Source: Escherichia phage BEU50. From it: a DNA stretch of 64,000 bases. Under the pieces are notes generated by a model. The model saw only the letters and a list, made by a program, of their open reading frames with translations, searched no databases and was not told the DNA's origin. This document shows, in pieces, positions 25,910 to 50,340 of this stretch. The position numbers were made by a program, and so were the translations under genes. The stretch's first letter is position 1, and every line of letters begins with the position of its first letter. The stretch is from sequence record OM632671.1; one strand, written 5' to 3'.

Positions 25910-25966
25910 TGTACAAACTCTTCCGATGATGATATTATACCTTTATCAACCACAGGAGAAACCTAA

Positions 25967-26575
25967 ATGTTTATGCCGTATAACGAGTGTGAAATTGAAG
26001 AAATGGTTCGTCGTGCTCAAAACCCCGAATATCAAGATGTATTGCAGTACGAAATTGATAGTCAATTCAACGATAATGAACAAAGCATCCTTTGGCAGTG
26101 TATGGAAAACAAGCCAGACTGTATTCAACAGGAGTTAAGTTCAATCGTTCGTAGAAATTGGACGTCTTCTGTTCCTGAGACAATGTATCGTGGAATCTCT
26201 AAGAAAACTATGGCCACACTTGATGATAAAGGCATTGGTAGTATTATTAAATTTGACAGAGTAATGAGCTTCAGCCCAGTGTTCGGTGTAGCACGTAACT
26301 TTGCTTCGTATAATTTTTACGGAACATTTAATATGTTCTGCATCAAAGATGCACCATTTGCTTTCAACTTCCGTGAACATATGCTTAACATGATTCTGGC
26401 CGCGCCATCTTGCGAGTTCAATGGAGCTTTCCCTGAAGCGACAAGACGGTCTAATGCTAGACTTATATCTGACGAATGTGAATTTATGCTCCCTATAGGG
26501 ACTACACTGCGTGTAGATTCTATTATTCAAGATGGACGTTATACAATCTGGAATCTATCTATTGTCAGTTACTGA
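25967..26575 (+). CDS. ADP-ribosyltransferase-like protein (ModB/ModA family paralogue 2)
   Basis: Paralogue of 25328..25909 (ILWxC, SxVP..xYRG, FxF/STS-like, ECE motif). Confidence 0.5.
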   Translation: MFMPYNECEIEEMVRRAQNPEYQDVLQYEIDSQFNDNEQSILWQCMENKPDCIQQELSSIVRRNWTSSVPETMYRGISKKTMATLDDKGIGSIIKFDRVMSFSPVFGVARNFASYNFYGTFNMFCIKDAPFAFNFREHMLNMILAAPSCEFNGAFPEATRRSNARLISDECEFMLPIGTTLRVDSIIQDGRYTIWNLSIVSY

Positions 26576-26727: not shown

Positions 26728-27474
26728 ATGTTATCAAATAATAAAATTAACAAAATCAATCGTCGTCTTGACCACACCAGAGCTTCTGCGAAGAGACGCT
26801 CTAAGGATTTTAACTTAGACTTTAATTACCTTAAAAACATTCTTGATCAAAAGGTCTGCGCTTACTCAGGTGAATCTTTTAATAACTCTGTTGAAGGTGA
26901 GAAATTATCCTTAGAACGTTTTAATAATGATATAGGCTACATTAAAGGTAATGTTATCCCAGTTAAGAAAAAATATAACACGGCTCGTTCTGATTTAACA
27001 TTAGAAGAACTTATTGGGAAACGTGATGCCATTGCAAGACGTATCGCTAATCCTTCTGTCAGTAAAGTAGAGAAACTTAATCTTGACGAGAAGAAATGGG
27101 CCCAAATTAAAAAGGTTTATGATACTATTTTAAAAATCCGAGCAAAACGTGAAAATCGTGTTAAGCATATGGCGAACATGATGAAAAATCAACCTTTATC
27201 TAACGAATCTAAACTTAGAATTGTTGCTTTGAAAGCACGCATTAATGGCTCACATCAAGCACTAGGCCATGAACTTACTAAACTCAACGTTCTTCTTAAA
27301 GGCTCTGACTGGAAAACTAAAACTAAATTAACTGACGCTGAATCGCTTTTCGATACATATGATAAAGTTATCCAAGGTCTGCAACGTTTTGAAAAGATTG
27401 GTTTCATTGGTAAATTAAAATTGAAACGTGGCTTACCACTTAGCGCATCATTATTCCAACTGATTAAAGGTTAA
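26728..27474 (+). CDS. Hypothetical protein (248 aa), possibly HNH-like nuclease-related
   Basis: Weak HNH-like segment CAYSGESF...ERFNNDIGYIKGNVIP; position of T4 srd. Confidence 0.35.
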   Translation: MLSNNKINKINRRLDHTRASAKRRSKDFNLDFNYLKNILDQKVCAYSGESFNNSVEGEKLSLERFNNDIGYIKGNVIPVKKKYNTARSDLTLEELIGKRDAIARRIANPSVSKVEKLNLDEKKWAQIKKVYDTILKIRAKRENRVKHMANMMKNQPLSNESKLRIVALKARINGSHQALGHELTKLNVLLKGSDWKTKTKLTDAESLFDTYDKVIQGLQRFEKIGFIGKLKLKRGLPLSASLFQLIKG

Positions 27475-27476
27475 TT

Positions 27477-27788
27477 ATGGTTTATGTATATGCAATAGTT
27501 TATCGAGATATGGAAGGATTTACTGTCCCGGTTCCACTTGATGAGCATCGTCCTGCAGTATTTTTTAGAAAGGATATTGCAGATAAAGTTTTCGATACTT
27601 TGAAAACACAGTATAAAACAGATTTAAAAATGGGAGTTCTAAGAATGGTCGAAACTCCGCGTAAGTTCTGGTTTAATAAGCTTGAAATGAAACACGTTAA
27701 ACTAGATGCGGAGACGCAAAGATTGTATCAACGAATCCTGGACACAGGCCGTATTGTTAGTATTCCAATTGCAGGGACTTTACGATGA
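27477..27788 (+). CDS. Hypothetical protein (103 aa) upstream of dda
   Basis: ORF; overlapping stop/start with dda. Confidence 0.35.
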   Translation: MVYVYAIVYRDMEGFTVPVPLDEHRPAVFFRKDIADKVFDTLKTQYKTDLKMGVLRMVETPRKFWFNKLEMKHVKLDAETQRLYQRILDTGRIVSIPIAGTLR

Positions 27789-29098
27789 CATTTGATGATT
27801 TGACTGAAGGTCAGAAAAACGCCTTCAACGTTGTTATGAACGCTATTAAAGAAAAGAAACATCACGTAACTATTAATGGGCCTGCTGGTACAGGTAAAAC
27901 AACCCTTACTAGATTCATCGTTGAAGCCCTTATTTCTTCTGGAGAATCAGGTATTATTTTAGCAGCCCCTACACATGCTGCTAAAAAGGTTCTAAGCAAA
28001 CTTGCTGGTCAAGAAGCATCGACTATTCATAGCATTCTTAAAATCAACCCAACTACATACGAAGAAAACGTATTGTTTGAACAGAAAAAGGTTCCCGACT
28101 TAGCCTTGTGCCGTGTACTGTTATTTGATGAAGCGTCAATGTGCGACCGTTCTCTGTTTAAAATAATGTTAGCTAGTATCCCTAAATGGTGTACAGTAAT
28201 TGGAATCGGCGACCGATGCCAGATTCGACCGGTAGACCCAGGCGAATCAACTGCGTATCTAAGTCCTTTCTTCACTCACAAAGACTTCGTGCAATGCAAC
28301 CTTACAGAAGTTAAACGTAGCAATGCACCAATTATTGATGTTGCGACTGATATTCGTAATGGCAAATGGATTTACGATAAAGTAGTTGATGGGCACGGTG
28401 TTCATGGATATACAGACCTTAAATCGTATATGATGAACTATTTTAACGTTGTTAAAACTCCTGAAGACCTTTTCGAAAATCGAATGATGGCATTCACAAA
28501 TAAGTCAGTGGACAAGTTAAATTCAATTATTCGCCGAAAACTTCTTGAAACAGAAAAACCATTTATTAAAGACGAAGTCATTGTTCTACAAGAGCCATTT
28601 ACTAAGACATATAAGCTAGATGGTAAAAATATGACCGAAATGCTTTTCAATAACGGGCAATTCGTTCGTATTCGAGATGCTGTAGAAACGTCTACATTCG
28701 TTAAAGCACGTGGTGTTTCAGGCGAATATATGATACGATACTGGAATCTTACAGTAGAAACATATGGGGATGATGAAGAATATATCCGCGAAGATATAAA
28801 GGTTATTTCTTCTGAAGAAGAGCTTTATAAATTCAATTTGTTTTTGGCTAAGACTGCAGAAACATACAAATTCTGGAATAAAGGTGGTAAAGCTCCATGG
28901 AGCGAATTCTGGGATGCTAAACGTATGTTCACTAAGGTGAAGGCACTACCTGTATCAACCTTCCATAAGGCCCAGGGTATGTCTGTTGACACGGCCTTTG
29001 TTTATACACCGTGTATCCATTATGCTGATTCAGAATTAGCTAAACAGTTATTGTATGTCGGCACGACTCGTGGTCGTTTTGACGTCCATTTTATTTGA
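27785..29098 (+). CDS. dda: SF1 DNA helicase Dda
   Basis: Walker A NGPAGTGKTT; 437 aa; RecD-like motifs; T4 synteny with dexA. Confidence 0.9.
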   Translation: MTFDDLTEGQKNAFNVVMNAIKEKKHHVTINGPAGTGKTTLTRFIVEALISSGESGIILAAPTHAAKKVLSKLAGQEASTIHSILKINPTTYEENVLFEQKKVPDLALCRVLLFDEASMCDRSLFKIMLASIPKWCTVIGIGDRCQIRPVDPGESTAYLSPFFTHKDFVQCNLTEVKRSNAPIIDVATDIRNGKWIYDKVVDGHGVHGYTDLKSYMMNYFNVVKTPEDLFENRMMAFTNKSVDKLNSIIRRKLLETEKPFIKDEVIVLQEPFTKTYKLDGKNMTEMLFNNGQFVRIRDAVETSTFVKARGVSGEYMIRYWNLTVETYGDDEEYIREDIKVISSEEELYKFNLFLAKTAETYKFWNKGGKAPWSEFWDAKRMFTKVKALPVSTFHKAQGMSVDTAFVYTPCIHYADSELAKQLLYVGTTRGRFDVHFI

Positions 29099-29107
29099 GA
29101 GAAAATT

Positions 29108-29785
29108 ATGAGCACTGATGTTATTATAGATTTTGAAACATTCGGCAATACATCAAAAGCGGCTGTTATTGACCTTGCGGTTATTGCATATAATTCCGAC
29201 CCTGAAGTTGTTGAATCATTTGAAGAACTTGTTCAACGAGGTAAGCGAATTAAATTTAATTTAGCTTCTCAGAAAGGGAAGCGAGTTTTCGCTAAATCCA
29301 CTATGAAATGGTGGAAAGAACAATCGGCTGAAGCGCGTAAAAACTTGGCTCCGTCTGAAGACGATGTCACTACGCTTGAAGGCATTAAAATCTTTTTAGA
29401 CTATTGCCGAGCTAATAAAGTTGACCAATGGAAATCACAGATGTGGTGCCGTGGTATGAGCTTTGACTTCCCGATCTTGGTCGATTTGATTCGTGACCTC
29501 TATCGTGATGAAGGTGTTCTTGAACCAGATATTGATACTGATAAATTAGAACCGGTTAAATTCTGGGCTCAACGCGATATTCGTACGGCAATCGAAGCTT
29601 ACTCTTTGACACGAGGATTAAGTATGTGTCCATTACCGATGGGTACGCTAAAAGGATTCGTTGCCCATGATAGTATTCATGATTGTGCTAAAGATATTTT
29701 GATGTTAAAATATGCTCAGCGTTATGCGCTTGGCCTTGAAGATGTACCTGAGAATCCTGACCCGTTAAGTGTAAAACAGCGATAA
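29108..29785 (+). CDS. dexA: 3'-5' exonuclease DexA
   Basis: DEDD-type N-terminus VIIDFETFG; 225 aa. Confidence 0.8.
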   Translation: MSTDVIIDFETFGNTSKAAVIDLAVIAYNSDPEVVESFEELVQRGKRIKFNLASQKGKRVFAKSTMKWWKEQSAEARKNLAPSEDDVTTLEGIKIFLDYCRANKVDQWKSQMWCRGMSFDFPILVDLIRDLYRDEGVLEPDIDTDKLEPVKFWAQRDIRTAIEAYSLTRGLSMCPLPMGTLKGFVAHDSIHDCAKDILMLKYAQRYALGLEDVPENPDPLSVKQR

Positions 29786-29789
29786 AACA

Positions 29790-29819
29790 GTTTACAACCA
29801 AGGACGGTTGGAGTATAAT
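29790..29819 (+). promoter_or_regulatory. Early promoter (GTTTACA, 18 nt, TATAAT)
   Basis: Upstream of paralogue 1 (29851). Confidence 0.4.
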
Positions 29820-29850
29820 CTTTCTATCTTAACCAAACAGGAAAAACATT

Positions 29851-30345
29851 ATGAATATCAATACTACGGCTACTTACATCCTGAAAGACGAAAAACAAAT
29901 CAACTGGTACGGTGCTTCAGTGAGAGCTTATGAAAAGTTTTGTGAAATTTTAGGTGCCACTCAAGGTAATAGTTTCACTATTGTTAACTTCATCAAACAA
30001 GCTGAAGGCCCTTGGTTATTCTTAGAAATTAAAAATTCATACGGTACAATTTCTACTACCGCCCTTCCAAGCACCGACTTTGAACTGTTGATTGAAGAAG
30101 TAGAACCCGGTAAAGACATCTGTATTGATATGGATATCGCTTGTATGTACGGTACTCTGATTAAGCCTATTGAGCCTACTGATTTGTTGTGTAAAGCTGT
30201 TTCAATTCGACGTCCGTTCGCAGGTCCAGTGAGTGGATGGGTAACTGATCAATGGATTGAAGACGGTGTTGAACTTCTGAACGTTGTTCATGCAGGTGAT
30301 TTTAGTGTAGTTCCACGTAGTGCTGTGGTTAATATCCTTAATTAA
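29851..30345 (+). CDS. Tandem paralogue 1 of a three-gene family (function unknown)
   Basis: Shares C-terminal block ...WV(T/S)DQWIEDGVELLNVVHAGDFSVVP... with the next two ORFs. Confidence 0.45.
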   Translation: MNINTTATYILKDEKQINWYGASVRAYEKFCEILGATQGNSFTIVNFIKQAEGPWLFLEIKNSYGTISTTALPSTDFELLIEEVEPGKDICIDMDIACMYGTLIKPIEPTDLLCKAVSIRRPFAGPVSGWVTDQWIEDGVELLNVVHAGDFSVVPRSAVVNILN

Positions 30346-30347
30346 TG

Positions 30348-30377
30348 TTGTACATCCAAGGATGGATGGAGTATAGT
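30348..30377 (+). promoter_or_regulatory. Early promoter-like element (TTGTACA, 18 nt, TATAGT)
   Basis: Upstream of paralogue 2. Confidence 0.35.
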
Positions 30378-30407
30378 GAATTCAATTTAAACAAAGAGAG
30401 AAAAATT

Positions 30408-30863
30408 ATGATTACTATTGGTGAAATTAAGCGTGTATCGTCTGCATCTCGTTCTAAAGCTGCAGGTCGTCTAGTTGAAGTGGTAGGACTTCGTACTAAT
30501 GGTACTGGTCGTGTTAAAGAAGTTAAAGTTCGAATCATTCCTAGTTCTGGAAAAACTGAAACTCAGTACGCTTACGTAAGTCCTAAATTTTTGGAAACTC
30601 CTGTGAGCGCTCATTTTGCTTCTACTGAACCTAATGCACAGTTCAAATGGGCCCTTTGCAAAGGTGTTGAATTCCAGACGGATAAAGAATTTGACTTCAT
30701 CGATGAATACGGTTATCCAAGCAAAACTGATACTATGTGTGGCTTCATTAGTGACCAATGGGTTGAAGATGGTGAAAAGTTATACAATATCGTATTCTTA
30801 GGTGACTTCCGAGTTGTTAAAGAATCTGAAATCACTCGCTATGTGTCTCCTCGTAAAGCTTAA
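30408..30863 (+). CDS. Tandem paralogue 2 of the three-gene family
   Basis: ISDQWVEDGEKLYNIVFLGDFRVV; ATG at 30408 preceded by AAAGAGAG. Confidence 0.45.
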   Translation: MITIGEIKRVSSASRSKAAGRLVEVVGLRTNGTGRVKEVKVRIIPSSGKTETQYAYVSPKFLETPVSAHFASTEPNAQFKWALCKGVEFQTDKEFDFIDEYGYPSKTDTMCGFISDQWVEDGEKLYNIVFLGDFRVVKESEITRYVSPRKA

Positions 30864-30872
30864 GGAATTATT

Positions 30873-31292
30873 ATGAATATTGTAAATCTCTCTACAGGTG
30901 ATTATGTATATGTATCCGTTGCTTCTCGCTCTAAAGTTGCCGGGAAGTTGGTTGAAGTTCTTTCTGTGAGTGATCCGGTTTTTGGACGTAACGAAGTTAA
31001 AGTTCGTGACGCTGATGGTAACATTGGTTATGTCTCAAGCCAATTCATTGAACCAGAAGAAAAAGCGTTCAAATGGGGACTATGCAGATCAGTTTCTGTT
31101 GAAAAAGACCATGAATTCACTATTGCTGCGGCAACTGATGGAACACCGTGGAAAACTAAGCAAATCGCTGGATTTATTAGCGACCGTTGGGTAGAAGATG
31201 GTGTTAAGCTTTATAACATCGTTTTCGCTGGACAGTTCATGGTAGTTCCTGAATTCCAAATTAAAAAATATAGCCCAGCTGCTTTCGCATAA
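30873..31292 (+). CDS. Tandem paralogue 3 of the three-gene family
   Basis: ISDRWVEDGVKLYNIVFAGQFMVV; N-terminal ...SRSKVAGKLVEV... shared with paralogue 2. Confidence 0.45.
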   Translation: MNIVNLSTGDYVYVSVASRSKVAGKLVEVLSVSDPVFGRNEVKVRDADGNIGYVSSQFIEPEEKAFKWGLCRSVSVEKDHEFTIAAATDGTPWKTKQIAGFISDRWVEDGVKLYNIVFAGQFMVVPEFQIKKYSPAAFA

Positions 31293-31296
31293 AGTT

Positions 31297-31325
31297 GTTT
31301 ACTTCTCCTCTGGTTTTGGTATTAT
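31297..31325 (+). promoter_or_regulatory. Early promoter (GTTTAC, 17 nt, TATTAT)
   Basis: Upstream of the 31352 start. Confidence 0.35.
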
Positions 31326-31351
31326 AACCATATCAACCAGAGGAGAATAAT

Positions 31352-31876
31352 ATGTTAGTTTACCGCGTAGAACGTAGTTTTTGTACTCAACGTGAATCAT
31401 TACCAGGAATTGCTATCGAAGACGGTAAAGCCGTCAGAATTTGGGAAACCTCTTGGAATAAAGAACCTCGCTCACCATACGGTTGGTCGGGCACCGACAA
31501 CTCTGAAGAAACATGGGAGTTCCTTGATAAACATGGAATAATCTCAGGTAATTTCTACCATCACGGCGACAACTATAACGTCCCTAATCGTCCTACAGTA
31601 AATGAAGACAAACTCCTTGAACAAAATATCTTAAGATACTATAGAATTGAGCACACATTTGAATTGAGTGAAGATTGGGCTCAAGGGTTCTATTTTGGAT
31701 TTGAAAGTGTTGACGCGGTTTATGCATGGTTTGATGACCAGGTGGATGTTGAACTCTTGAAAGCTAAAGGATACTACATCGCGGTCTATGAAGCACCTGA
31801 TTTCATCCTCGGAAGTTGTCAATTAATGTTCAGACGTTCATTGGCAGAACAAGTTGATTTTATTTTGCTAAAATGA
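31352..31876 (+). CDS. Hypothetical protein (174 aa)
   Basis: ORF with RBS AGAGGAGAA. Confidence 0.4.
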   Translation: MLVYRVERSFCTQRESLPGIAIEDGKAVRIWETSWNKEPRSPYGWSGTDNSEETWEFLDKHGIISGNFYHHGDNYNVPNRPTVNEDKLLEQNILRYYRIEHTFELSEDWAQGFYFGFESVDAVYAWFDDQVDVELLKAKGYYIAVYEAPDFILGSCQLMFRRSLAEQVDFILLK

Positions 31877-31933
31877 TGTACAACAACTATGGTCTATGAT
31901 ACTATAGACCTATCAAAACAAGAGGAGAATATT

Positions 31934-32161
31934 ATGAAACGTCAAATCATTAAAAACGTAACTACTGATTCAAACATCGATGAGTTTGAAGATGTTCTGT
32001 TTAATCCTGATTTAGTTGTTGTACAGAAAAACTGGACCGAATTTTTATGCTACACTGAAGTGGTTTACGTTTACGAAAAACTCGGCGATGAAATGCCTAT
32101 CTATGGTATCTTCCGTGAAATCACTGAAAACGGTACAACTTATTGGAAGGAAACTTACTAA
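31934..32161 (+). CDS. Hypothetical protein (75 aa)
   Basis: ATG at 31934 preceded by AAGAGGAGAA and a promoter-like element at 31877..31905. Confidence 0.3.
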
Positions 32162-32574
32162 TGGCTAATAAATTCCGCGTTAACTCATGGTACCAATTTA
32201 AAGATAAACGTGCCCAAGAAGAGTTTATTAAAGACCACACTGATAATGGGATTTATGCACGACGTCTTGGCATGGAACCATTTAAAGTATTAGATGTTGA
32301 CCATCTTGGTCGTCCTACTAAAATTGTGACATCTACTGGCATGGTTGGATACGCAACAGGCGGTGATATCCTTGATGAAAACTTTATCTGGCTCTCCACG
32401 AATGAAGCAGAGTTCTTTGACGAAGTTGGAAATCCATATCAAGAGTCTAAAGAGCAAGATTCTGGTGAACTTGACGAATTGTCTGAATTTCCGGTGATGA
32501 CGATTACTATCGAAAATAACGACCAGGCATGGTCTTTGTATCAAATGTTGAAAGCTCACTTTAAGGAACAATAA
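32161..32574 (+). CDS. Hypothetical protein (137 aa)
   Basis: ATG overlapping upstream stop. Confidence 0.35.
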
Positions 32575-32753
32575 TGCCGTTATACGACTATAAATGTCAA
32601 TCTGAAGATTGTGGTCATGAATATGAAAAAATTAAAAGAATTTCTGAACGAGAAAACGATGTTTGCCCTGAATGTCATCGTCTGTCTACTCGTCGGGTTT
32701 CTGCTCCTAAACATGTGAACGGTGGTTTTTACGACTTACTTAAGAAGGGTTAA
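32574..32753 (+). CDS. Small zinc-ribbon protein (59 aa)
   Basis: CQSEDCGH ... CPECH (two CxxC pairs); ATG overlaps upstream stop; below ORF-track cutoff. Confidence 0.35.
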   Translation: MPLYDYKCQSEDCGHEYEKIKRISERENDVCPECHRLSTRRVSAPKHVNGGFYDLLKKG

Positions 32754-32755
32754 TT

Positions 32756-33181
32756 ATGGCTTTTAAAGGTTTTGAAGTTGGTAAGAAATATCGTATTATC
32801 AAAGGACAAGAAGATAATTTCTTGAGAATTCTTAATACGACTGGTAAACGTCTTAATACTAATCTGCATACTACTTTATTGTCCAAAGATTTTATTGTGG
32901 AAGAGATGATTGGTTACGGTGTTTCGATGATTGCTGTAGAAGCCGTAGGCGATTATGGCCGAACTATTCATAGTATGCAAGGTGATATTCTGCTTTATGG
33001 TGCAGAATTTAAATTCTTTGAAGAAGTTCCGGAACCAGATACAGCTGTCGATTTCAAAAAAGGCTCTATAGAATTTGTTGATGGTTCGGTGATCGTATCA
33101 GGCGATGTGGTCATTACAGTTAAAAGTGAACAAGGGCGTTTAGCTGCAATTGATGCACTTCAGAAAATTAAATTTAAATAA
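32756..33181 (+). CDS. Hypothetical protein (141 aa)
   Basis: ORF directly upstream of gene 39; same length as T4 goF, not verified. Confidence 0.35.
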   Translation: MAFKGFEVGKKYRIIKGQEDNFLRILNTTGKRLNTNLHTTLLSKDFIVEEMIGYGVSMIAVEAVGDYGRTIHSMQGDILLYGAEFKFFEEVPEPDTAVDFKKGSIEFVDGSVIVSGDVVITVKSEQGRLAAIDALQKIKFK

Positions 33182-33199
33182 GGGCTTAGGCCCTTTTTG
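33181..33199 (+). terminator. Terminator-like hairpin (AGGGC-UUAG-GCCCU followed by UUUU)
   Basis: Short GC stem plus T run immediately after the 32756..33181 ORF. Confidence 0.4.
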
Positions 33200-33244
33200 C
33201 TTTAGATTTTGGATGATAGAATACCTTCATAACGAGGAGACAAC

Positions 33245-35065
33245 ATGATTAAAAATGAAATTAAGGTATTGTCAGATGTAGAACATATTAAGAAACGTAG
33301 TGGTATGTATATTGGTTCTTCTGCTAAAGAAGCACATGAGCGTTTTTTGTTTGGTAAATATCAACAAGTTGAATATGTTCCTGGTCTGGTTAAATTAATC
33401 GATGAGATTATTGACAACTCGGTTGATGAAGCTATTCGTACATCATTTAAGTTTGCAAATAAAATTGATGTGCAAATTAAAAATAATCAAGTTTCGGTGG
33501 AAGATAACGGACGTGGTATTCCTCAAGGTTTAGTTACCGACCAAACGGGTGAACAAATTCCTGGGCCTGTAGCAGCCTGGACTATTCCAAAGGCTGGTGG
33601 TAACTTTGGTGATGACTCTGAACGCAAGACTGGTGGTATGAACGGTGTAGGGAGTAGTTTAACTAATATCTTCTCTACGTTGTTTACAGGCATCACGTCA
33701 GATGGCGAAAATGAAATCACTGTTAACTGTTCAAACGGAATGGAAAACAAATCATGGTCTTCTAAGAAATCTAAAGGTAAAGGCACTAAAGTAATCTTCA
33801 CTCCTGATTTCTCTTCATTTGAAGAGCATAATTTATCTCAAATTTATTTAGATATTACTTTAGACAGACTTCAAACATTGGCAGTCGTTTATCCTGATAT
33901 CAAGTTCACATTTAATGGTAAAAAGGTTGATGGTAATTTTAAACGATTTGCTAAACAATTTGGTGAAGATAACATCATTCAAGAAAATGATAAAGTCTCT
34001 ATAGCATTCACAACATCACCAGATGGCTTCCGTCATTTAACTTATGTGAATAACATCCATACTAAAAATGGTGGCCATCATGTTGAATGTGTAATGGATG
34101 ATATCTGTGAACATCTTTTGCCGGGTATTAAAAAGAAATATAAGGGTATTGAAGTCACTAAAGCTCGTGTTAAAGAATGCCTCACAATGTTGATGTTTAT
34201 TAGAGACATGAGCAACATGCGTTTTGATTCTCAGACTAAAGAACGTTTAACGTCAACGTATGGTGATATTCGTAATCATATCCAATTAGATGCTAAGAAA
34301 ATTGCTCAGGCACTTCTTAAAAACGAAGCCTTGATTATGCCTATTGTTGAAGCAGCATTAGCTCGTAAATTGGCAGCAGAAAAGGCTGCAGAAACTAAAG
34401 CAGCTAAAAAGGCGACTAAAGCTAAGGTTCATAAGCATATTAAAGCTAACCAATGTGGTAAAGATGCAGATACGACATTGTTTTTAACAGAAGGTGATTC
34501 GGCAATTGGTTATCTCATTGATGTTCGTGACCGTGAACTACACGGCGGATTCCCATTACGTGGTAAGGTGATGAATAGCTGGGGTATGTCATATGCTGAT
34601 ATGATGAAGAACAAAGAGCTCTTTGATATCTGTGCTATCACAGGTCTTATTCTTGGTGAAAAGGCAGAGAATACGAACTATCGTAATATTGCAATTATGA
34701 CCGATGCCGATCATGACGGTCTTGGAAGTATCTATCCAGCTTTGCTTGCTTTCTTTAGTAATTGGCCTGAATTGTTTGAACAAGGACGTATTCGCTTTGT
34801 TAAAACGCCTGTAATTATTGCACAAATTGGCAAAACTCAAAAATGGTTTTATACTGTAGCTGAGTATGAAGAAGCTAAAGATACACTGCCTAAGCATAGT
34901 ATTCGATACATCAAGGGATTGGGCTCACTTCAGCGAGATGAATATAAAGAAATGATTCAAAACCCTGTGTACGACGTAGTTAAACTTCCTGAAAATTGGA
35001 AAGAACTATTTGAAATGCTCATGGGTAACGACCCTGAACTCCGTAAAGATTGGATGCTAGGATAA
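33245..35065 (+). CDS. 39: DNA topoisomerase II ATPase subunit, fused gp60+gp39 form (606 aa)
   Basis: GyrB-like GHKL ATPase N-terminus (LVKLIDEIIDNSVDEA), TOPRIM (LTEGDSA ... DADHDG); continuous ORF of the length of the fused 60+39 form. Confidence 0.9.
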   Translation: MIKNEIKVLSDVEHIKKRSGMYIGSSAKEAHERFLFGKYQQVEYVPGLVKLIDEIIDNSVDEAIRTSFKFANKIDVQIKNNQVSVEDNGRGIPQGLVTDQTGEQIPGPVAAWTIPKAGGNFGDDSERKTGGMNGVGSSLTNIFSTLFTGITSDGENEITVNCSNGMENKSWSSKKSKGKGTKVIFTPDFSSFEEHNLSQIYLDITLDRLQTLAVVYPDIKFTFNGKKVDGNFKRFAKQFGEDNIIQENDKVSIAFTTSPDGFRHLTYVNNIHTKNGGHHVECVMDDICEHLLPGIKKKYKGIEVTKARVKECLTMLMFIRDMSNMRFDSQTKERLTSTYGDIRNHIQLDAKKIAQALLKNEALIMPIVEAALARKLAAEKAAETKAAKKATKAKVHKHIKANQCGKDADTTLFLTEGDSAIGYLIDVRDRELHGGFPLRGKVMNSWGMSYADMMKNKELFDICAITGLILGEKAENTNYRNIAIMTDADHDGLGSIYPALLAFFSNWPELFEQGRIRFVKTPVIIAQIGKTQKWFYTVAEYEEAKDTLPKHSIRYIKGLGSLQRDEYKEMIQNPVYDVVKLPENWKELFEMLMGNDPELRKDWMLG

Positions 35066-35862
35066 TGAATTATCGTAAAATTTATGATAAACTTATCGCT
35101 GCGGCTAAAAACCGCAGCATTATTCCTAATTATACTGAGACACATCATATATTGCCAAAATCTATGGGTGGGAGTAATGATAAATCAAATCTAGTTAAAA
35201 TGACCCCTAGAGAGCATTTTATCGCCCATTTATTGCTTTATAAAATTCATAAGAACCGTTCTATGCTTATGGCTATTAGAGCTTTTTACATGGGAGCTAG
35301 AAATTCTAGAGATTATGATTGGCTTAAACAAGAATTCTCTAAAGAGCACTCTAGATTTATGAAAGAATGGATTGCTAAAAACGGCAACCCATTTAAAGGT
35401 AAAAAACATACTAAAGCAACAAGAGAATTAATGTCACATATTGCTTCACAACGTATAGGCGAATTAAATCCATTTTATGGTAAAACTCATACGCAAGAAG
35501 CAATAGATAAAATAATACAGGCCAACAAGTTATCTTGGGAGAATGGGCGAAAAGCACCTGTAAAAACAAAAGAACACCAGGATAAAATAACTAAATCAAG
35601 AATGGAAACATTTAAAACAAAAGGATTTAAACCATACACTCCTAGGTCGGAAGAAACTAAAGCTAAGACTAGAGAGTTGTATAAATCTAAATATGAAAGA
35701 AGGCCTATAAGAATCACAAGTGTAAAAACAGGTGAAACTATTGATTTTAACTATCTTTATGAATTAAGAGAGTATTTAGATATAGGGTCTTCTAATATAT
35801 TGAAAGCATTAAATAATCCTAACAGAACCTGCAAAGGTTATAAAATGTGTTGGATGTCCTAA
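35065..35862 (+). CDS. HNH homing endonuclease (MobA-like position)
   Basis: ETHHILPKSMGGSNDKSNLVKMTPREHFIAH; N-terminus MNYRKIYDKL parallels the other two HNH paralogues; ATG overlaps gene 39 stop. Confidence 0.7.
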   Translation: MNYRKIYDKLIAAAKNRSIIPNYTETHHILPKSMGGSNDKSNLVKMTPREHFIAHLLLYKIHKNRSMLMAIRAFYMGARNSRDYDWLKQEFSKEHSRFMKEWIAKNGNPFKGKKHTKATRELMSHIASQRIGELNPFYGKTHTQEAIDKIIQANKLSWENGRKAPVKTKEHQDKITKSRMETFKTKGFKPYTPRSEETKAKTRELYKSKYERRPIRITSVKTGETIDFNYLYELREYLDIGSSNILKALNNPNRTCKGYKMCWMS

Positions 35863-35885
35863 GCTCCTTCGGGAGCTTCATTTTA
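35861..35885 (+). terminator. Terminator-like hairpin (AAGCUCC-UUCG-GGAGCUU)
   Basis: 7-bp stem with UUCG loop immediately after the HNH gene; weak U tract. Confidence 0.4.
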
Positions 35886-35904
35886 ATTTTAATAAGGCTT
35901 AATT

Positions 35905-37005
35905 ATGAAAGTTATGTTTATCCCATCTCGTGCAGTCCCATTTAATCCTGACCGTGTACAAGGTGGTCTTGAAGCGGTTCATTTGAACGTGTTGAAATAT
36001 TTAGTTTCTATCGGTGCCGATATTGATTATATCGGCTTTGATAATGACACGTTTGGTGACTGGAAAGTTACACACCATCCTGTTGGTCATCTGACTAAAT
36101 TCAGTCTAGGTATGAGTTATACTATGGCTCGTAAGATTGTTGAACTAGCCGGCATCCATGAATACGATTTTGTTGTTACTATGGAACCGACTAAACTAAC
36201 CGTTCAGGCAATTAAAGACGCAGGTCTCTCTAAAGTTCATAAGAATTTTATGGCAACACCATTTGAACCAGTATCTCGTGGCATTGTTCAAATTTGGGAC
36301 CAGACTATTCAAATTCATAAGAATGGCGGTAAGAGTTATGCTCCTACTAAAGCCTTCCGTGAATTTGAACGCAAATATTGTTATATGACTTCAGGTCTGA
36401 CTGACAAAATCGATTATGATTATTGGCGAGCAAATCCGTTGTTTGAAGCCGAAGATTATCCGGTTATTTGTTTGACTGAAAAGCCAGAAGTTCTCCCGGC
36501 AACTGATTTGATTATTAGTGCTCAACGTTATGACACTAAGATGCGTCGCACTGATGTTGCTCTTGAAGCAATTAAAGCACTAGGCGAAAATGGTGTAGGA
36601 TACTGTCCTAGTAAATGGGCACCACCAGCTAAATATCCTGTTATTATTGATGCTCCACACAGTGAAATCATGGAACGTCTTAAAACAGCTAAAGCACTTA
36701 TTAATACGTGTCCTGACACAGGTACGGTAGAGAATAGTTCTATTGAAGCCATCTCTAAAGGTGTCCCTGTAATCCAGTTAGTTTTTAAGGATTATCCTCA
36801 TGCGACATTTGAATACGACCCAGATACTGTGCGTGTAGAAATTGATTCCTCTACTCCTAAGAAAGAAGTAGTTGCGCTTTACACAAAAGCTGTATTAGAA
36901 TTCACTGACACATACGAAGCTCGAGTTAAACGTGCTGAAGCAGTATGGAAGAAGTATAATCGAGATGCAGTTGTTGCGATGTGGGATAAAATCTTCACAG
37001 CGTAA
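35905..37005 (+). CDS. GT-B fold glycosyltransferase (candidate DNA hydroxymethylcytosine sugar transferase)
   Basis: C-terminal GT-B/GT4-like motif TGTVENSSIEAISKGVPVIQ (compare EGFG..LEAMA.G.PVI); located between topoisomerase and rIIA. Confidence 0.6.
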   Translation: MKVMFIPSRAVPFNPDRVQGGLEAVHLNVLKYLVSIGADIDYIGFDNDTFGDWKVTHHPVGHLTKFSLGMSYTMARKIVELAGIHEYDFVVTMEPTKLTVQAIKDAGLSKVHKNFMATPFEPVSRGIVQIWDQTIQIHKNGGKSYAPTKAFREFERKYCYMTSGLTDKIDYDYWRANPLFEAEDYPVICLTEKPEVLPATDLIISAQRYDTKMRRTDVALEAIKALGENGVGYCPSKWAPPAKYPVIIDAPHSEIMERLKTAKALINTCPDTGTVENSSIEAISKGVPVIQLVFKDYPHATFEYDPDTVRVEIDSSTPKKEVVALYTKAVLEFTDTYEARVKRAEAVWKKYNRDAVVAMWDKIFTA

Positions 37006-37020
37006 ATCCTGAATAGCCTG

Positions 37021-37071
37021 AGGCACTATTACACATAAGATGATAGATTATATGGTCTTTAGTAATAGTGC
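37021..37071. repeat. Inverted repeat GGCACTATTAC / GTAATAGTGCC separated by 29 nt
   Basis: 11-bp perfect inverted repeat in the intergenic region after the glycosyltransferase gene. Confidence 0.5.
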
Positions 37072-37097
37072 CCTAGGAATCTACTGAAGAGAATATT

Positions 37098-37298
37098 ATG
37101 AGAACATATAACGTGGACTTGGAACTTTTTGATAAAGCAGTGCTCCGGGAATTCCGGCTTATCCAAAGATTTTTTGATATCGAATCAGCAGAGTCCTTTA
37201 AAGAACGCTTTAAAGAAATTCGATATAAAATACAAACCGATACAGCTACTAAAGAAGAACTTCTTGAAGTAGCAGAAATTTTTAAACGTAACTTGTGA
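37098..37298 (+). CDS. Small protein (66 aa) at the rIIA.1 position
   Basis: ORF with RBS GAAGAGAA. Confidence 0.3.
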   Translation: MRTYNVDLELFDKAVLREFRLIQRFFDIESAESFKERFKEIRYKIQTDTATKEELLEVAEIFKRNL

Positions 37299-37310
37299 TG
37301 AGAGAAAAAC

Positions 37311-39368
37311 ATGATTATCGAAACGGCTAAAGAAACGATTATTGGTTCTGGTGGTAAGAGCACAGCATTCACTATTCAAGGCAATAGCAAAGTTTATAAG
37401 ATTTTGTCTAATGACCTTTATACAAACAAAGAATTGGCTTGTGTACGTGAATTAATCACAAACTGTATCGATGGACAAATTCTTAATGGTTGCACTGATA
37501 AGTTTATTGTTCAGGCTCCAGGTCGTTTAGACCCACGTTTTGTAGTTCGAGACTTTGGTCCTGGTATGAGTGATTTCACCATTCGAGGTAATGACGAAGA
37601 GCCAGGAATCTATAACTCATATTTTGCTTCAACTAAAACATCGAGTAATGATTTCATTGGTGGATTCGGACTCGGCTCTAAAGCTCCATTAGCATATACT
37701 GATACGTTTAACATTACTTCTTATCATAATGGTGAAGTTCGTGGTTATGTAATTTATCAAGATGACAGTGGTCCACAAATTAAGCCAACCTTTGTAGATA
37801 AGATGGGCCCTGATGACCGTACGGGTGTAGAAGTAGTTGTGCCTGTTAACCCGGAAGATTTTGAAAAGTTCGCATCTGAAATTGCGTATGTTATGCGTCC
37901 TCTCGGCGATATTGCAGAAGTTCGTGGTGTTAAAGATATCAAATACTTCCCGGAATTCGATGATGTTTATTTAGCCAAGGAAGCTCCATGGGGTGAACGT
38001 GGTAATATCATGGCTGTTTATGGTGGTATTGTATATCCAATCGGAAGTGTTATTAAAGAACAAACATGGATGATGACGCGATGCACTACAGCTTATATCA
38101 AATTCCCTATGGGTGAACTAGATGTAGCCCCGTCTCGTGAAGCATTGTCATTTGATAAACGTACAGTAGCAAATATTCATAAACGTGTTGCAGAAATTGA
38201 TGCAAAATTATTTGCTGAAGATTCTAAGAAATGGATTGATTGTGAATATCCACGTCATGTATTCCGTGAAATCGATTCTCTTGGTTACTCTGCTCGTAAA
38301 TACATGGAAAAAGCCGGTTCTAATATTGAATCACTGAAATATTCTAAAGAACAACTAACTTATTCTGAGTTGTACAAACGTTTTAAAATGGGACCTGAAT
38401 GGTGCAACCTTGGCGTTGTATATGATATCGTTTCAGATCCACGACTTCGTCGTATTCGTGAAAGCGGAAGCTCGTCTGCAACTATTTCAATTAATAGCCT
38501 GCTAGGTATTAGTCGTAAGCATATTGATATTGTTATTGACGATGTGAAAGGCCGCGTACCAATGATGCGTGCTCTGAACGATGCTTTGACTTCCACCGAT
38601 GCATCAACACTCGTTGATAAGGTTCCTTCCGGACGGGGTAGTAGCGTATTATTCATTAACCCGGAAGATGAAGTTGCAATGAAACTTCTGGAACGATTAA
38701 AGGTTATTTTCGCTGGTGATAGCCTTAAATTTTATAAGACCTCTGAAATTCTTGCATTAGTTAAACCATGGATTGAAGTTAAAGAACGTTCATCGCAGCC
38801 TCGTCCTAAATCCCCAAGTGCTCATCGGTTCTTTAAGAATGAAAACGATGTTTGGGTATCAGAAGATCTCTTTATTCCGGCCGGTAAAGCTGATGAGATT
38901 CAAGGTTATGTTGTAATTCGTAATCGTTCTAACGCTGAATGTCTTGACGCAGATAAAGGTTGGTTGAACTATGATTCTAATTTCTTGACTCGTATTGCTG
39001 ATTTGTCAGGTATTAAAGAGTTCACTGTAGTCCGTCCACAGATTGCTAAGAAAGTTCGTAAACTTGGTGAAGTAGAATGCTTGTTCGAAAAATCAATTAA
39101 TGACTATATTACGCTAATTGATAAAGTGGATTATGATGAGTATGTATCACCAAGTCGTAGAGCACAGCCTTATTTGAATCATATTACTCGTAACGAAGAG
39201 CTTAACTTCCTTAGTAAGTATTTTAGCTCTAAGAACAAAGAAATCAGTAAAGACTTTGCAAAACTCTCAACAGTAAATAATCGCTGGGGATGGAATCGAT
39301 TCGCAGGTGCTGATAACAGAGACCTGAACAGGAAGTTAGAATTGTGCTTAAAGAGGACTCTTTTGTAG
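37311..39368 (+). CDS. rIIA: rIIA-like protein (GHKL ATPase fold), possibly C-terminally truncated at a breakpoint
   Basis: N-terminal MIIETAKET...[15 protein letters not shown] (GHKL motif I-like), GGFGLGSK (G-loop); 685 aa versus about 725 aa recalled for T4 rIIA; no rIIB follows. Confidence 0.55.
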
Positions 39369-39619
39369 ACCCAGAAATTTTCTACGGTTTGCGTGCCCGT
39401 GAAATTGAAATTGAGCCACAACCTACAGTTAAAATTGAAGGTGGTCAACACCTGAACGTTAACGTTCTGCGTCGTGAAACTCTGGAAGATGCAGTTAAGC
39501 ATCCGGAAAAATATCCGCAATTGACTATCCGTGTATCCGGTTATGCAGTTCGCTTTAACTCTCTGACTCCGGAACAGCAGCGCGACGTTATCGCTCGTAC
39601 CTTTACCGAGAGTTTGTAA
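39344..39619 (+). CDS. GrcA/YfiD-like autonomous glycyl-radical domain (3' portion of gene; N-terminal part not present upstream)
   Basis: C-terminal about 60 aa ...[60 protein letters not shown] is near-identical to E. coli GrcA as I recall it, including the glycyl-radical motif RVSGYAV; host-like GC-rich codons. Confidence 0.6.
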
Positions 39620-40379: not shown

Positions 40380-40409
40380 GTTTACTTTTCCTCTTGACTG
40401 TGGTATAAT
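40380..40409 (+). promoter_or_regulatory. Early promoter (GTTTAC, 18 nt, TATAAT)
   Basis: Upstream of regB. Confidence 0.4.
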
Positions 40410-40436: not shown

Positions 40437-40898
40437 ATGACTATCAACACAGAAGTTTTTATCCGTCGAAATAAGCTTCGTCGTCACTTTGAGTCGGAGT
40501 TTCGTCAAATTAACAATGAGATTCGTGAGGCATCAAAAGCAGCAGGGGTCTCATCGTTTCATCTAAAATATTCTCAGCATCTTCTTGATCGTGCAATTCA
40601 ACGGGAGATTGATGAGACATATGTTTTTGAATTATTCCACAAAATAAAAGACCATGTTTTAGAAGTTAATGAATTCCTGAGTATGCCTCCGCGTCCTGAC
40701 ATTGATGAGGATTTTATTGATGGGGTTGAATACCGTCCTGGACGTTTAGAAATCACAGATGGAAATCTTTGGCTTGGATTTACAGTTTGTAAACCTAATG
40801 CGAAGTTCAAAGACCCGTCGCTTCAATGCAGGATGGCAATTATCAATAGTCGTCGTTTACCAGGAAAGGCTTCTAAAGCAGTAATTAAAACTCAATGA
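40437..40898 (+). CDS. regB: Endoribonuclease RegB-like (153 aa)
   Basis: Length and sequence fit T4 RegB as I recall it; position upstream of tk. Confidence 0.6.
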   Translation: MTINTEVFIRRNKLRRHFESEFRQINNEIREASKAAGVSSFHLKYSQHLLDRAIQREIDETYVFELFHKIKDHVLEVNEFLSMPPRPDIDEDFIDGVEYRPGRLEITDGNLWLGFTVCKPNAKFKDPSLQCRMAIINSRRLPGKASKAVIKTQ

Positions 40899-40905
40899 GG
40901 TAAGC

Positions 40906-41451
40906 ATGAGAAAAGCACTACTCGCTGGTCTATTGGCCATTTCAATGATGGCACATAGCTCCGAGCATACTTTCAGTAATGTCCAACTCGATAACATGCG
41001 TTACGCGTATCAATTCGGGGAACAATTTTCTAAGGATGGAAAATATAAAACACACAAAAACATCCACAAGAGCGGATTGGGTCATATAATGGCTGCTATT
41101 TTGTGGCAAGAAAGCTCTGCCGGAGTTAATTTAAAATCTAAACCAAAGCATCACGCCTACGGAATGTTCCAAAATTATTTGCCTACTATGCGAGCGAGAG
41201 TTAAGGAACTTGGTTATAATATGACCGATGCTGAAATAAAAAGAATGTTGAATAAACGATCCAATTCAGCTTCCTGGGCGTACATTGAACTTTCTTATTG
41301 GTTAAATATACATAAGGGCGATATAAGAAAAGCAATATCCTCTTATAATTCGGGATGGAATGTTAAAGCAGGTTCTAAATATGCTTCTGAAGTCCTAGAA
41401 AAGGCTAATTACCTTAAAAATAATAAACTTTTGGAAATAGTAAATGACTAA
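40906..41451 (+). CDS. Secreted lytic transglycosylase-like protein (SLT-like motifs)
   Basis: Signal peptide MRKALLAGLLAISMMAHS; ILWQESSAG ... AYGMFQ ... SYNSGW resemble SLT family E-S / GLMQ / AYNAG motifs. Confidence 0.45.
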   Translation: MRKALLAGLLAISMMAHSSEHTFSNVQLDNMRYAYQFGEQFSKDGKYKTHKNIHKSGLGHIMAAILWQESSAGVNLKSKPKHHAYGMFQNYLPTMRARVKELGYNMTDAEIKRMLNKRSNSASWAYIELSYWLNIHKGDIRKAISSYNSGWNVKAGSKYASEVLEKANYLKNNKLLEIVND

Positions 41452-41785
41452 AATTTTGGTTTTATGTATAGGATTAATTTCATTTTCTGCGTTAGCAGAT
41501 ACATCATATACTGAAATTAGAGAGTATGTAAACCGTACTGCAGCGGATTATTGCGGGAAAAATAAAGCATGCCAAGCTGAATTTGCGCAGAAATTAATAT
41601 ATGCATATAAAGACGGAGAAAGAGATAAATCAAGCAGATACAAAAATGATACATTGTTAAAACGATATGCTAAAAAGTGGAATACCTTAGAATGTTCAGT
41701 TGCGGAGGAGAAAGATAAAGCCGCTTGTCATTCAATGGTTGACCGTTTAGTAGATTCTTATAATCGAGGATTGAGTACTAGATGA
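41444..41785 (+). CDS. Secreted small protein with four Cys (113 aa)
   Basis: Signal peptide MTKILVLCIGLISFSALA. Confidence 0.35.
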   Translation: MTKILVLCIGLISFSALADTSYTEIREYVNRTAADYCGKNKACQAEFAQKLIYAYKDGERDKSSRYKNDTLLKRYAKKWNTLECSVAEEKDKAACHSMVDRLVDSYNRGLSTR

Positions 41786-42261
41786 TTGTAAAATATATCA
41801 AGGGCGATATTGTCGCCCTATTTCTTCAAGGTAATATTATTGCGCACGGGTGCAATTGCTTCCACACAATGGGCTCTGGCGTAGCAGGTCAATTAGCAAG
41901 AGCCTATCCCAAAATTTTAGAAATAGATAAAACCACTACCGAGTACGGTTCTCGTGATAAATTAGGCGATATGTCTATTGTTTTTAAACATAGTCCTACG
42001 GGATTTGGTATATGCTATAACCTGTATACACAATACGAACCGGGTCCTAATCTTGATTATGGTGCTTTAGTAAACTGCATGATAGAATTAAATCTACAGG
42101 CAGAAACCCTTTTGTTTAAACCAGTAATTTACATTCCACGCATAGGTTGCGGTATTGCTGGTGGTGATTGGGATAAGGTTTCTAAATTAATCGACATGTT
42201 TACTCCTGATATTGATTTAATAGTGGTGGATTATGAAAGTACATTACCCGCATCCGTTTGA
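41782..42261 (+). CDS. Macro-domain-like protein (ADP-ribose binding/processing)
   Basis: GDIVALFLQGNIIAHGCNCFHTMGSGVAGQLARAYP resembles the macro-domain N-terminal signature (GDIT...VNAAN..L.GGGV.GAI); later PRIGCGIAGGDWDKV. Confidence 0.5.
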   Translation: MIVKYIKGDIVALFLQGNIIAHGCNCFHTMGSGVAGQLARAYPKILEIDKTTTEYGSRDKLGDMSIVFKHSPTGFGICYNLYTQYEPGPNLDYGALVNCMIELNLQAETLLFKPVIYIPRIGCGIAGGDWDKVSKLIDMFTPDIDLIVVDYESTLPASV

Positions 42262-43009
42262 TCCTAAAAACAAAGTGGAAATTATTCGTCAATGGGAACG
42301 CATTTGCCGTACTAAATGCCCAATTAATAGTCCACATGATGTAGATAAAGACTATATTGGAACATTCGTTGAATATACCTTTATTGATAGGAAAGGTCGT
42401 AAACAACATGTAGAAGAATATTGTTTAAAGGTTACATGGTTATGAGCCAAACTAGTATTCTTAAAAATGCCCATTGTGAAAAGTGTAAGTGGCCGATTGT
42501 TTTTGCTTTATGTAATGATGAAATGGCTTGTGATTTCGATTATTGGTGCTATTGTTCTAATAAAGGATGCATCAATCATAAAGGTGAAGGATTTTATTCA
42601 GGATTTTATCCTTATCCTGATTTCGTTAAAGAAGGTAAACCGAAATGAATAGTTTTGAGTTACAATATGAAGTGTTACGTGAGCTTGATAATTTAATTGA
42701 ACTCGCTGTCAATAAAGGTTTTGCCATTGGAATCGGTCAAAAAGATACTGGTCATTTAACTATGGAAATATTTAAGCAAAAGCGAATTATTTTAAAACTC
42801 CTGGAAATTAATATATGAGTCTGAGTAAAGAATAAAAAGATAAATTGTTTGAGCTTATCCATGAACTTCTAGATGAGCATGCAGAAGCAAACACCTTTTA
42901 TGATGAATACGGCCCGCTATCTCCCGAACAGCAAGAAGAATTTGCTGATCGGTTTGATAAGAAAGAAAACGAATTAATAGCTTATGTGAATATGCTTTAA
43001 GAAGGTGAT

Positions 43010-43591
43010 ATGGCGAGTTTAATTTTTACTTACGCAGCAATGAATGCTGGAAAATCTGCTTCTCTTTTGACTGCTGCACATAATTATAAAGAACGCGGAA
43101 TGAGTGTATTAGTTCTTAAGCCTGCTATTGATACTCGCGATTCTGTCTGTGAAGTCGTTTCTCGCATTGGAATTAAGCAGGAAGCGAATATTATTACAGA
43201 TGATATGGATATTTTCGAGTTCTATAAATGGGCTGAAGCACAAAAAGATATTCATTGCGTATTTGTAGATGAAGCTCAGTTTTTAAAAACTGAACAGGTG
43301 CATCAATTAAGTCGAATTGTTGATACATATAATGTTCCTGTTATGGCTTATGGATTAAGGACTGATTTCGCTGGAAAATTGTTTGAAGGTTCTAAAGAAC
43401 TTTTAGCGATTGCAGATAAACTTATTGAACTAAAGGCAGTTTGTCATTGCGGCAAAAAAGCGATTATGACAGCTCGATTAATGGAAGATGGAACACCAGT
43501 TAAAGAAGGTAATCAAATCTGTATTGGTGATGAAATTTATGTTTCTTTGTGTAGAAAACATTGGAACGAATTAACTAAAAAGCTCGGTTAG
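43010..43591 (+). CDS. tk: Thymidine kinase
   Basis: Walker A AAMNAGKSASLL, DEAQF, C-terminal zinc-binding CHCG...C..H; 193 aa. Confidence 0.9.
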   Translation: MASLIFTYAAMNAGKSASLLTAAHNYKERGMSVLVLKPAIDTRDSVCEVVSRIGIKQEANIITDDMDIFEFYKWAEAQKDIHCVFVDEAQFLKTEQVHQLSRIVDTYNVPVMAYGLRTDFAGKLFEGSKELLAIADKLIELKAVCHCGKKAIMTARLMEDGTPVKEGNQICIGDEIYVSLCRKHWNELTKKLG

Positions 43592-44539: not shown

Positions 44540-44563
44540 AGTCTCCTTCGGGAGACTTTTTTC
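44540..44563 (+). terminator. Intrinsic terminator (AGUCUCC-UUCG-GGAGACU followed by U6)
   Basis: 7-bp stem, UUCG loop, T6. Confidence 0.7.
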
Positions 44564-50205: not shown

Positions 50206-50340
50206 TCCTGAGTCATCTTTTGTGAAAATTGTTTTATCTTTTAAGTTTATAGCCAATTCACCTTCGGCTAATACTGAAGCAGCAGGACGTTGACCTGCAG
50301 TTTTGCTTCTTTTAAATTGTATTTGTTTTAAAGTAGCCAT
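50206..50340 (-). other. 37: 5' fragment of long tail fibre distal subunit gene 37 (first 45 codons only)
   Basis: Minus-strand [45 protein letters not shown] matches the gp37 N-terminus, then diverges and stops after 6 more codons. Confidence 0.6.

Follow-up and report, generated by a model that had tools for sequence, protein, structure and literature searches.

A T-even tk.4/adfM ortholog encoding a stand-alone macrodomain that probably reverses DNA ADP-ribosylation by DarT2

The gene described here, which lies within the 64-kb stretch of phage DNA that was analysed (the window), is the tk.4/adfM ortholog of a Tequatrovirus, and it codes for a stand-alone, antitoxin-like macrodomain enzyme. 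We consider it probable, with a likelihood of roughly 70%, that the product (Tk.4) reverses the action of the DarT2 toxin by hydrolysing ADPr-thymidine on single-stranded DNA through a mechanism that uses a Gln, an Asn and a water molecule. DarT toxins, which ADP-ribosylate DNA, provide a widespread defence against phages, and the erasers carried by phages decide their host range. Neither the gene nor its fold is new, and the anti-DarTG2 role of the T4 ortholog is likewise known already. What is modestly new is the Gln-type active site found across the Tk.4 family, the distinctness of this family from the AdfM protein of phage PhiKZ, and the fact that the commonest allele differs from the one that has been tested.

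The ORF begins with an ATG codon, and its span in the ORF listing, with the stop codon counted in, agrees in both coordinates and protein length with that given in an earlier note on this DNA (Table 1). The two motifs quoted in that note are likewise present in the translation, as GDIV...AHGCNCFHTMGSGVAGQL at residues 8-38 and PRIGCGIAGGDWD at residues 119-131. A match to the Pfam Macro family (PF01661; E=1.3e-7, 32 bits compared with a gathering score of 22, profile positions 2-117/118), another to PHROG 335 (E=1.2e-71), and the recovery by tblastn of homologs in 2,789 of 50,697 phage records together rule out a chance ORF. A protein identical to that of the window is encoded by >100 deposited genomes, and the labels attached to identical or near-identical genes read ‘macro domain protein’, ‘phosphatase’ or ‘RNase III inhibitor’.

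The surrounding genes are arranged in the order regB, vs.1, vs, tk.4, tk.3, a zinc-binding ORF, tk, rI.1 and rI, and the 4 kb around tk.4 show 99.3% identity to Shigella phage SHFML-11; for many other Tequatroviruses the value is ~98.7%. In T4, the gene located between vs and tk.3 is tk.4, annotated as ‘phosphatase; contains A1pp phosphatase motif’. Given that the window gene occupies the same slot, it is the positional ortholog of T4 tk.4. Its start codon overlaps the stop codon of vs, in a layout that is also annotated in T4 and in phage OE5505, and therefore translation of the two genes is probably coupled. At the other end, the last 29 nt of tk.4 overlap the start of tk.3, as is also annotated in OE5505, because the window protein is four residues longer than that of T4 (159 versus 155 aa).

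We judge that tk.4 is probably expressed from a transcription unit that extends from regB to rI.-1. The best sigma-70-like match upstream of regB possibly marks the start of this unit. Such sites are not enriched over shuffles in our promoter scan (18 found versus 21.8 expected), and thus early transcription of tk.4 is assumed solely from what is known of T4. A hairpin followed by a T-run, which corresponds to a terminator annotated in OE5505, is predicted to be the probable end of the unit. Two other observations concern this region. A perfect short hairpin (AGGGCGAT-ATT-GTCGCCCT; 41801-41819, + strand) spans codons 7-13 of tk.4, is present in T4 as well, and sits just ahead of the point where the window and T4 alleles diverge. 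We rejected it as a feature on finding that the 91-nt region folds no better than shuffles (z=-0.64). In addition, the vs.1 product, which is mostly labelled hypothetical in the records, begins with a hydrophobic stretch resembling a signal peptide and gives a weak match to the SLT lytic transglycosylase domain (PF01464, E=4.8e-5).

Table 1. Positions in the window of tk.4, its neighbours and the sequence features discussed in the text.
Feature	Position	Strand	Description
Sigma-70-like promoter match	40381..40409	+	TTTACT-17-TATAAT with TG; best match upstream of regB; possible start of the unit
regB	40437-40898		Upstream of tk.4
vs.1	40906-41451	+	181 aa
vs	41444-41785		Directly upstream of tk.4
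ATGA overlap	41782..41785	+	tk.4 start / vs stop; read from the sequence
tk.4 / adfM CDS	41782..42261	+	159 aa; single macrodomain
First 15 codons of tk.4	41782..41826	+	Left cassette edge; 91% nt identity to T4
Divergent allele cassette	41827..42232	+	57% nt identity to T4
Loop 1 / catalytic loop	41845..41886	+	H22-G-C-N25-C-F-H-T-M-G31-S-G33-V-A35; family alignment
Strand end	42019..42033	+	N80-L-Y-T-Q84; profile alignments
Phosphate-binding Gly-rich loop	42136..42171	+	P119-R-I-G122-C-G124-I-A126-G-G-D-W130; profile alignments
tk.3	42233-42445		Downstream of tk.4; product matches DUF7202
Zinc-binding ORF	42421-42648	+	75 aa, Cys-rich; Pfam Phage_zn_bind PF23895, E=5e-29
tk	43010-43591		Downstream of tk.4
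Terminator-like hairpin and T-run	44540..44557	+	After rI.-1; probable end of the unit

Sequence profiles, structure prediction and a fold search all confirm the macro domain that had been proposed in the earlier note. The AlphaFold2 model, for which 67 family members were used (mean pLDDT 93.8, pTM 0.89), exhibits six strands and five helices, which are predicted to form the alpha/beta/alpha sandwich with a six-stranded mixed sheet that is required of a macro domain. When this model was compared with the PDB by using Foldseek, matches with a probability of 1.0 and TM values of 0.69-0.76 were obtained to TARG1, Poa1p, BT1257, T. aquaticus DarG, M. tuberculosis DarG and SCO6735, and on this basis we place Tk.4 in the ALC1/TARG1/DarG-like macrodomain class. 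The family profile of Tk.4 matches BT1257 (E=8e-20), TARG1 (2e-16), SCO6735 (9e-16) and Poa1p (9e-15), and matches DarG at 1e-11 and 7.5e-10.

DarG is the sole PADLOC family to match Tk.4 (5.2e-7; model positions 3-144/329), and the top NCBIfam match is the DarG model NF048014 (1.5e-6; positions 2-142/338), for which the score of 27.7 bits compares with an equivalog cut-off of 250. In both cases the match is confined to the macro portion. No darT gene is located next to tk.4, whose neighbours are vs, vs.1 and regB upstream, and tk.3, the zinc-binding ORF and tk downstream. We considered Tk.4 as a DarG antitoxin and rejected this classification, given a score far under the equivalog cut-off, the presence of one domain, the lack of the catalytic Lys, and the lack of a darT neighbour.

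Across the 67 aligned family members, which range down to 38% identity, the residues H22, G23, N25, C26, G33, A35, D49 and G62 are invariant, as are N80, Y82, Q84, P119, G122, G124 and W130. Putative ADP-ribose-binding loops can be recognized in the sequence at G31-x-G33 and at G122-x-G124...G127-G128. Our residue map was made by aligning reference proteins to the Tk.4 family profile and then numbering them, and it is validated by the fact that it reproduces the published numbers for SCO6735 (H24, N27, K34, Q85, K89, G126, G128) and TARG1 (K84, D125). A MAFFT alignment of six divergent macrodomains misplaced the strand with the catalytic position and was discarded in favour of the family-profile alignment. 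Even the latter places PhiKZ gp104 two residues out of register near its P-T-K motif, and therefore its Lys type was assigned from the motif and not from the alignment.

According to this map, H22 and N25 of Tk.4 correspond to H24 and N27 of SCO6735, N25 also corresponds to N23 of PhiKZ AdfM, and G122 and G124 correspond to G126 and G128 of SCO6735. The SCO6735 and PhiKZ equivalents of loop 1 residues have been mutagenised (PMC9411070, PMC13309987). Residue Q84 falls where TARG1 has K84 and SCO6735 has Q85, and A126 stands at the position of TARG1 D125. Published work states that SCO6735 Q85, DarG K80 and TARG1 K84 are equivalent (PMC9411070), and our equation of Tk.4 Q84 with K80 of DarG (TaqDarG) rests on that statement, our own map having been made via TARG1 and SCO6735. 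A tblastn search of plasmids for a DarG sequence returned only stand-alone macro proteins. For yeast Poa1p, whose site residues are H23, S30 and F152, the alignment reads off H23 as H22 of Tk.4 and S30 as T29, with the Poa1p residues taken only from the names of mutants in the PDB.

The TARG1 dyad and the DarG lysine are thus both missing from Tk.4, and its site is instead of the SCO6735 type, in which a Gln takes the place of the DarG/TARG1 Lys and is held by an Asn (Q84 and N25, invariant in the 67 members). The lysines with which SCO6735 positions DNA are absent from both the window and the T4 proteins, where K34 is replaced by S32 and K89 by G88. The calculated pI is 5.0 for window Tk.4, 5.9 for T4 Tk.4 and 9.5 for SCO6735. 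Given that PhiKZ AdfM has just as low a pI (5.05) and is a proven DNA-ADPr hydrolase, charge alone is no argument against a DNA substrate for Tk.4.

The biological role is best established for T4. In the HIDEN-SEQ preprint of November 2025, which employed a saturated T4 transposon library on hosts with defence systems, tk.4 was the only gene to reach significance when the host carried DarTG2. T4 became DarTG2-sensitive once tk.4 had been cleanly knocked out, and the gene was renamed adfM, for anti-DarT factor Macrodomain (10.1101/2025.11.20.689424). The evidence in this preprint is genetic and includes no enzymology, and removal of ADPr from DNA by T4 AdfM was proposed on the basis of similarity to M. 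tuberculosis DarG (10.1101/2025.11.20.689424). A further factor had been predicted previously, in work showing that loss of both AdfA and AdfN leaves T4 resistant to DarTG2 (PMC11825919). Our literature search found no other paper on Tk.4-type proteins, and no biochemistry for any of them. The earlier note had suggested that the protein could reverse ADP-ribosylation, counter DarT-type modification of DNA, or act against defences that use ADP-ribose-derived signals. The second of these roles is supported by the published knockout of the T4 ortholog, and our analysis turned up nothing in favour of the first and third.

We infer both that the window allele acts as that of T4 does and that it does so by hydrolysis. 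In the mechanism we propose, Tk.4 would be made early in infection, a timing adopted from T4, and would bind the ADP-ribose that host DarT2 has placed on thymidines of single-stranded phage DNA. The Asn-held Gln would then position the distal ribose, an activated water would do the chemistry, as for the SCO6735 type, and the thymine-ribose bond would be hydrolysed. Replicable DNA would thereby be restored, and the phage could grow on DarTG2-carrying hosts. For SCO6735 itself, the mechanism proposed is that Gln85, held by Asn27, positions the distal ribose and that an activated water acts. Removal of ADPr from thymidine on DNA is abolished in the Q85A and Q85E variants and strongly reduced in N27S and G128E (PMC9411070). 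PhiKZ AdfM (gp104) strips DarT2-made ADP-ribose from DNA in vitro (PMC13309987, Cell Rep 2026), and thus the phage strategy of erasing DarT2-made ADPr from DNA exists.

The window and T4 proteins are 58% identical (E=1e-70) in an alignment that is gapless over all 155 T4 residues. They have in common H22, N25, Q84, G122, G124 and W130, as well as the locus between vs and tk.3, and they differ in the phosphate loop (GCGIAGGDW in the window versus GAGIGKGNW in T4). The tk.4 allele is a sharply bounded cassette within an otherwise near-identical backbone: alignment and segment identities give 95% nt identity to T4 for the flanking vs gene and 89% for tk.3, compared with the low value of the cassette itself (Table 1). 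In the phage collection, the window allele is found in 312 records at a protein identity of at least 90%, and the T4 allele in 224 records at this same level and in a further 158 at 80-90%. Beyond position 42446, and up to ~43000, the window is unrelated to T4 (35% identity) and carries the zinc-binding ORF where T4 has tk.2. This region is a second replaced cassette, directly next to that of tk.4.

A bounded, divergent cassette is a pattern that in our reading often accompanies a fast-evolving partner, and it would suit an alternative in which Tk.4 protects mainly by binding, either sequestering DarT2 or shielding ADP-ribosylated DNA, with no need for catalysis. The same alternative draws support from catalytically dead SCO6735 Q85A, which inhibits DarT directly, and more strongly than do dead DarG or dead TARG1 (PMC9411070). 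Part of the protection by Tk.4 could thus be non-enzymatic. As the main mode of action, binding nevertheless seems improbable to us, since H22, N25, Q84, G122 and G124 are invariant in the 67 members down to 38% identity, which argues for selection on catalysis, and since Tk.4 has no counterpart of the C-terminal domain with which DarG binds DarT.

We regard it as comparably improbable that the enzyme acts on a small molecule, as an ADP-ribose-1''-phosphate phosphatase or an O-acetyl-ADP-ribose deacetylase in the manner of yeast Poa1p. The GenBank label ‘phosphatase, A1pp motif’ implies this activity, but the label derives from homology only, and the sole T4 tk.4 phenotype that has been found is specific to DarTG2. 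We know of no pathway in T4 infection that makes ADPr-1''-phosphate. Side activities of this kind are common in vitro for this class of macrodomain, without being its biological role. Still further from our preferred reading, hydrolysis of ADPr-thymidine on DNA, is the destruction of ADPr-derived immune messengers (Thoeris gcADPR, His-ADPR) or of toxic NAD-derived products. This idea has no experimental link to Tk.4, whose nearest relatives in structure and sequence are DNA and protein de-ADP-ribosylases, not signal-binding macro domains, and it is disfavoured by the same DarTG2-specific phenotype of T4.

The earlier note had also remarked that the phage encodes ADP-ribosyltransferases. This is true of T-even phages generally, every one of which encodes enzymes of the Alt/ModA/ModB kind, but the modB/modA-like genes of the window belong to a separate Mosigvirus segment. 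The window is colinear with no single T-even genome. Positions 1-39347 are of Mosigvirus type (1-25000 are 99.1% identical to phages a20 and NRG-P0074, and 27000-39347 are 98.4% identical to a20), and they run from DNA polymerase through the modB-like and modA-like genes, srd, dda and topoisomerase to a cut rIIA. At 39347/39348, the end of rIIA is joined to the interior of a Tequatrovirus vs.6/grcA gene, and this junction is spanned by none of 735 matching records. Both genes are cut as a consequence: rIIA (37311-39368, + strand, 685 aa) appears truncated at its 3' end, and the grcA-like vs.6 (39344-39619, + strand) has apparently lost its 5' end, with the C-terminal glycyl-radical part left (...RVSGYAVRF...). 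Colinearity of the tk.4-carrying Tequatrovirus segment with T4 and OE5505 ends at ~45766, and a further break lies inside nrdD at 50206/50207, where no phage record spans the junction. The patchwork suggests that the window is a chimera of assembly, a concatenation of contigs or an unusual recombinant.

Given these breaks, the transferase genes of the window and tk.4 lie in different segments. The two ModB/ModA-like genes (25328-25909, 193 aa, and 25967-26575, 202 aa, both on the + strand) are adjacent and in the usual mrh-modB-modA-srd-dda order. Their products share 30-38% identity with the ModA and ModB proteins of T4. At the DNA level, the two genes match Mosigvirus NRG-P0074 at 100% identity, and there they are annotated ‘RNA polymerase ADP-ribosylase’. 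A Pfam search at E<=0.01 gave no match for either product, and T4 Alt and AdfN (30.3) have no match within the 64-kb window. The least credible alternative, that Tk.4 tunes host takeover by erasing the ADP-ribosylation or RNAylation carried out by the phage’s own Alt, ModA and ModB, gains from the presence of these enzymes in T-even phages and of the modB/modA-like genes at 25328-26575, and yet the residue modified by Alt, ModA and ModB is arginine, cleavage of Arg-ADPr is not known for macrodomains of the TARG1/DarG/SCO6735 class, and the transferase genes of the window are in a genome segment that is not contiguous with that of tk.4. Moreover, T4 can do without tk.4 on E. coli K-12 that lacks DarTG2 (10.1101/2025.11.20.689424).

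If the window gene acts as its orthology with adfM suggests, then phages carrying this allele should plate on DarTG2 hosts, a prediction that is useful for choosing or engineering therapeutic T-even phages. The allele of the window is the commonest T-even allele in the phage collection, whereas the allele that has been tested is that of T4. A broader proposal, which we consider doubtful but worth stating, is that T-even Tk.4/AdfM represents a mechanistically separate Gln-type lineage of phage DNA de-ADP-ribosylases that arose from stand-alone bacterial macrodomains of the SCO6735/BT1257 kind, not from DarG, and that its cassettes could reflect selection for differing substrates or partners. 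If this were true, Gln-type Tk.4 would be convergent with the Lys-type AdfM of PhiKZ, the exchanged cassettes could mirror a variety of DarT toxins, other nucleic-acid ADP-ribosyltransferases or escape from host countermeasures, and the specificity of the window allele might not be that of the T4 allele that was tested.

A bacterial (Pelagimonas) homolog with 40% identity to window Tk.4 is a stand-alone gene without a DarT neighbour, and this single locus tentatively fits an origin of Tk.4 from orphan macrodomains and not from DarG. Other, distant homologs reside within larger genes, including one (30% identity) inside an ‘ADP-ribosyltransferase’ gene of a Microbacterium phage and several (~30% identity) inside ‘SLOG family protein’ genes on Bacillus thuringiensis plasmids. 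These large genes may represent the fusion of a writer or sensor domain to an eraser.

Among the closest known proteins, SCO6735 from Streptomyces coelicolor (PDB 5e3b) and BT1257 from Bacteroides (2afc/2fg1) are stand-alone ALC1-like macrodomains; SCO6735 guards Streptomyces against DarT (PMC9411070). DarG (DarG2), the antitoxin of DarTG2 (PDB 5m3i, 5m31, 7omu), uses a catalytic Lys80 where Tk.4 has Gln, and it possesses a C-terminal DarT-binding domain, whereas Tk.4 consists of the macro part only. Human TARG1/OARD1 (PDB 4j5r) belongs to the same macro class as Tk.4 and shares with it the PRIGCG phosphate loop, but the catalytic dyad K84/D125 of TARG1 is Q84/A126 in Tk.4. TARG1 is also reported to be able to remove dT-ADPr from DNA (PMC8501950). 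Yeast Poa1p (6lfq), again of the same class, has the HxCNC N-terminal motif in common with Tk.4. Unlike the phage protein, both TARG1 and Poa1p are eukaryotic housekeeping enzymes.

A functional parallel is offered by PhiKZ gp104, which is also termed ‘AdfM’ and, like Tk.4, is a phage-encoded stand-alone macrodomain whose target system is DarTG2 (PMC13309987). This protein is imported into the phage nucleus (PMC13309987). The name AdfM was given independently to T4 Tk.4 and to gp104, and the paper on the latter makes no mention of T4 (PMC13309987). BLASTP aligns gp104 with window Tk.4 in only two short patches (E=0.001), and gp104 scores 33 bits against the Tk.4 family profile. It has the DarG-type P-T-K-D-N-W motif with a catalytic Lys, whereas Tk.4 has Gln. 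On the basis of this motif and such bare similarity, the two AdfM proteins represent two lineages that have different catalytic residues.
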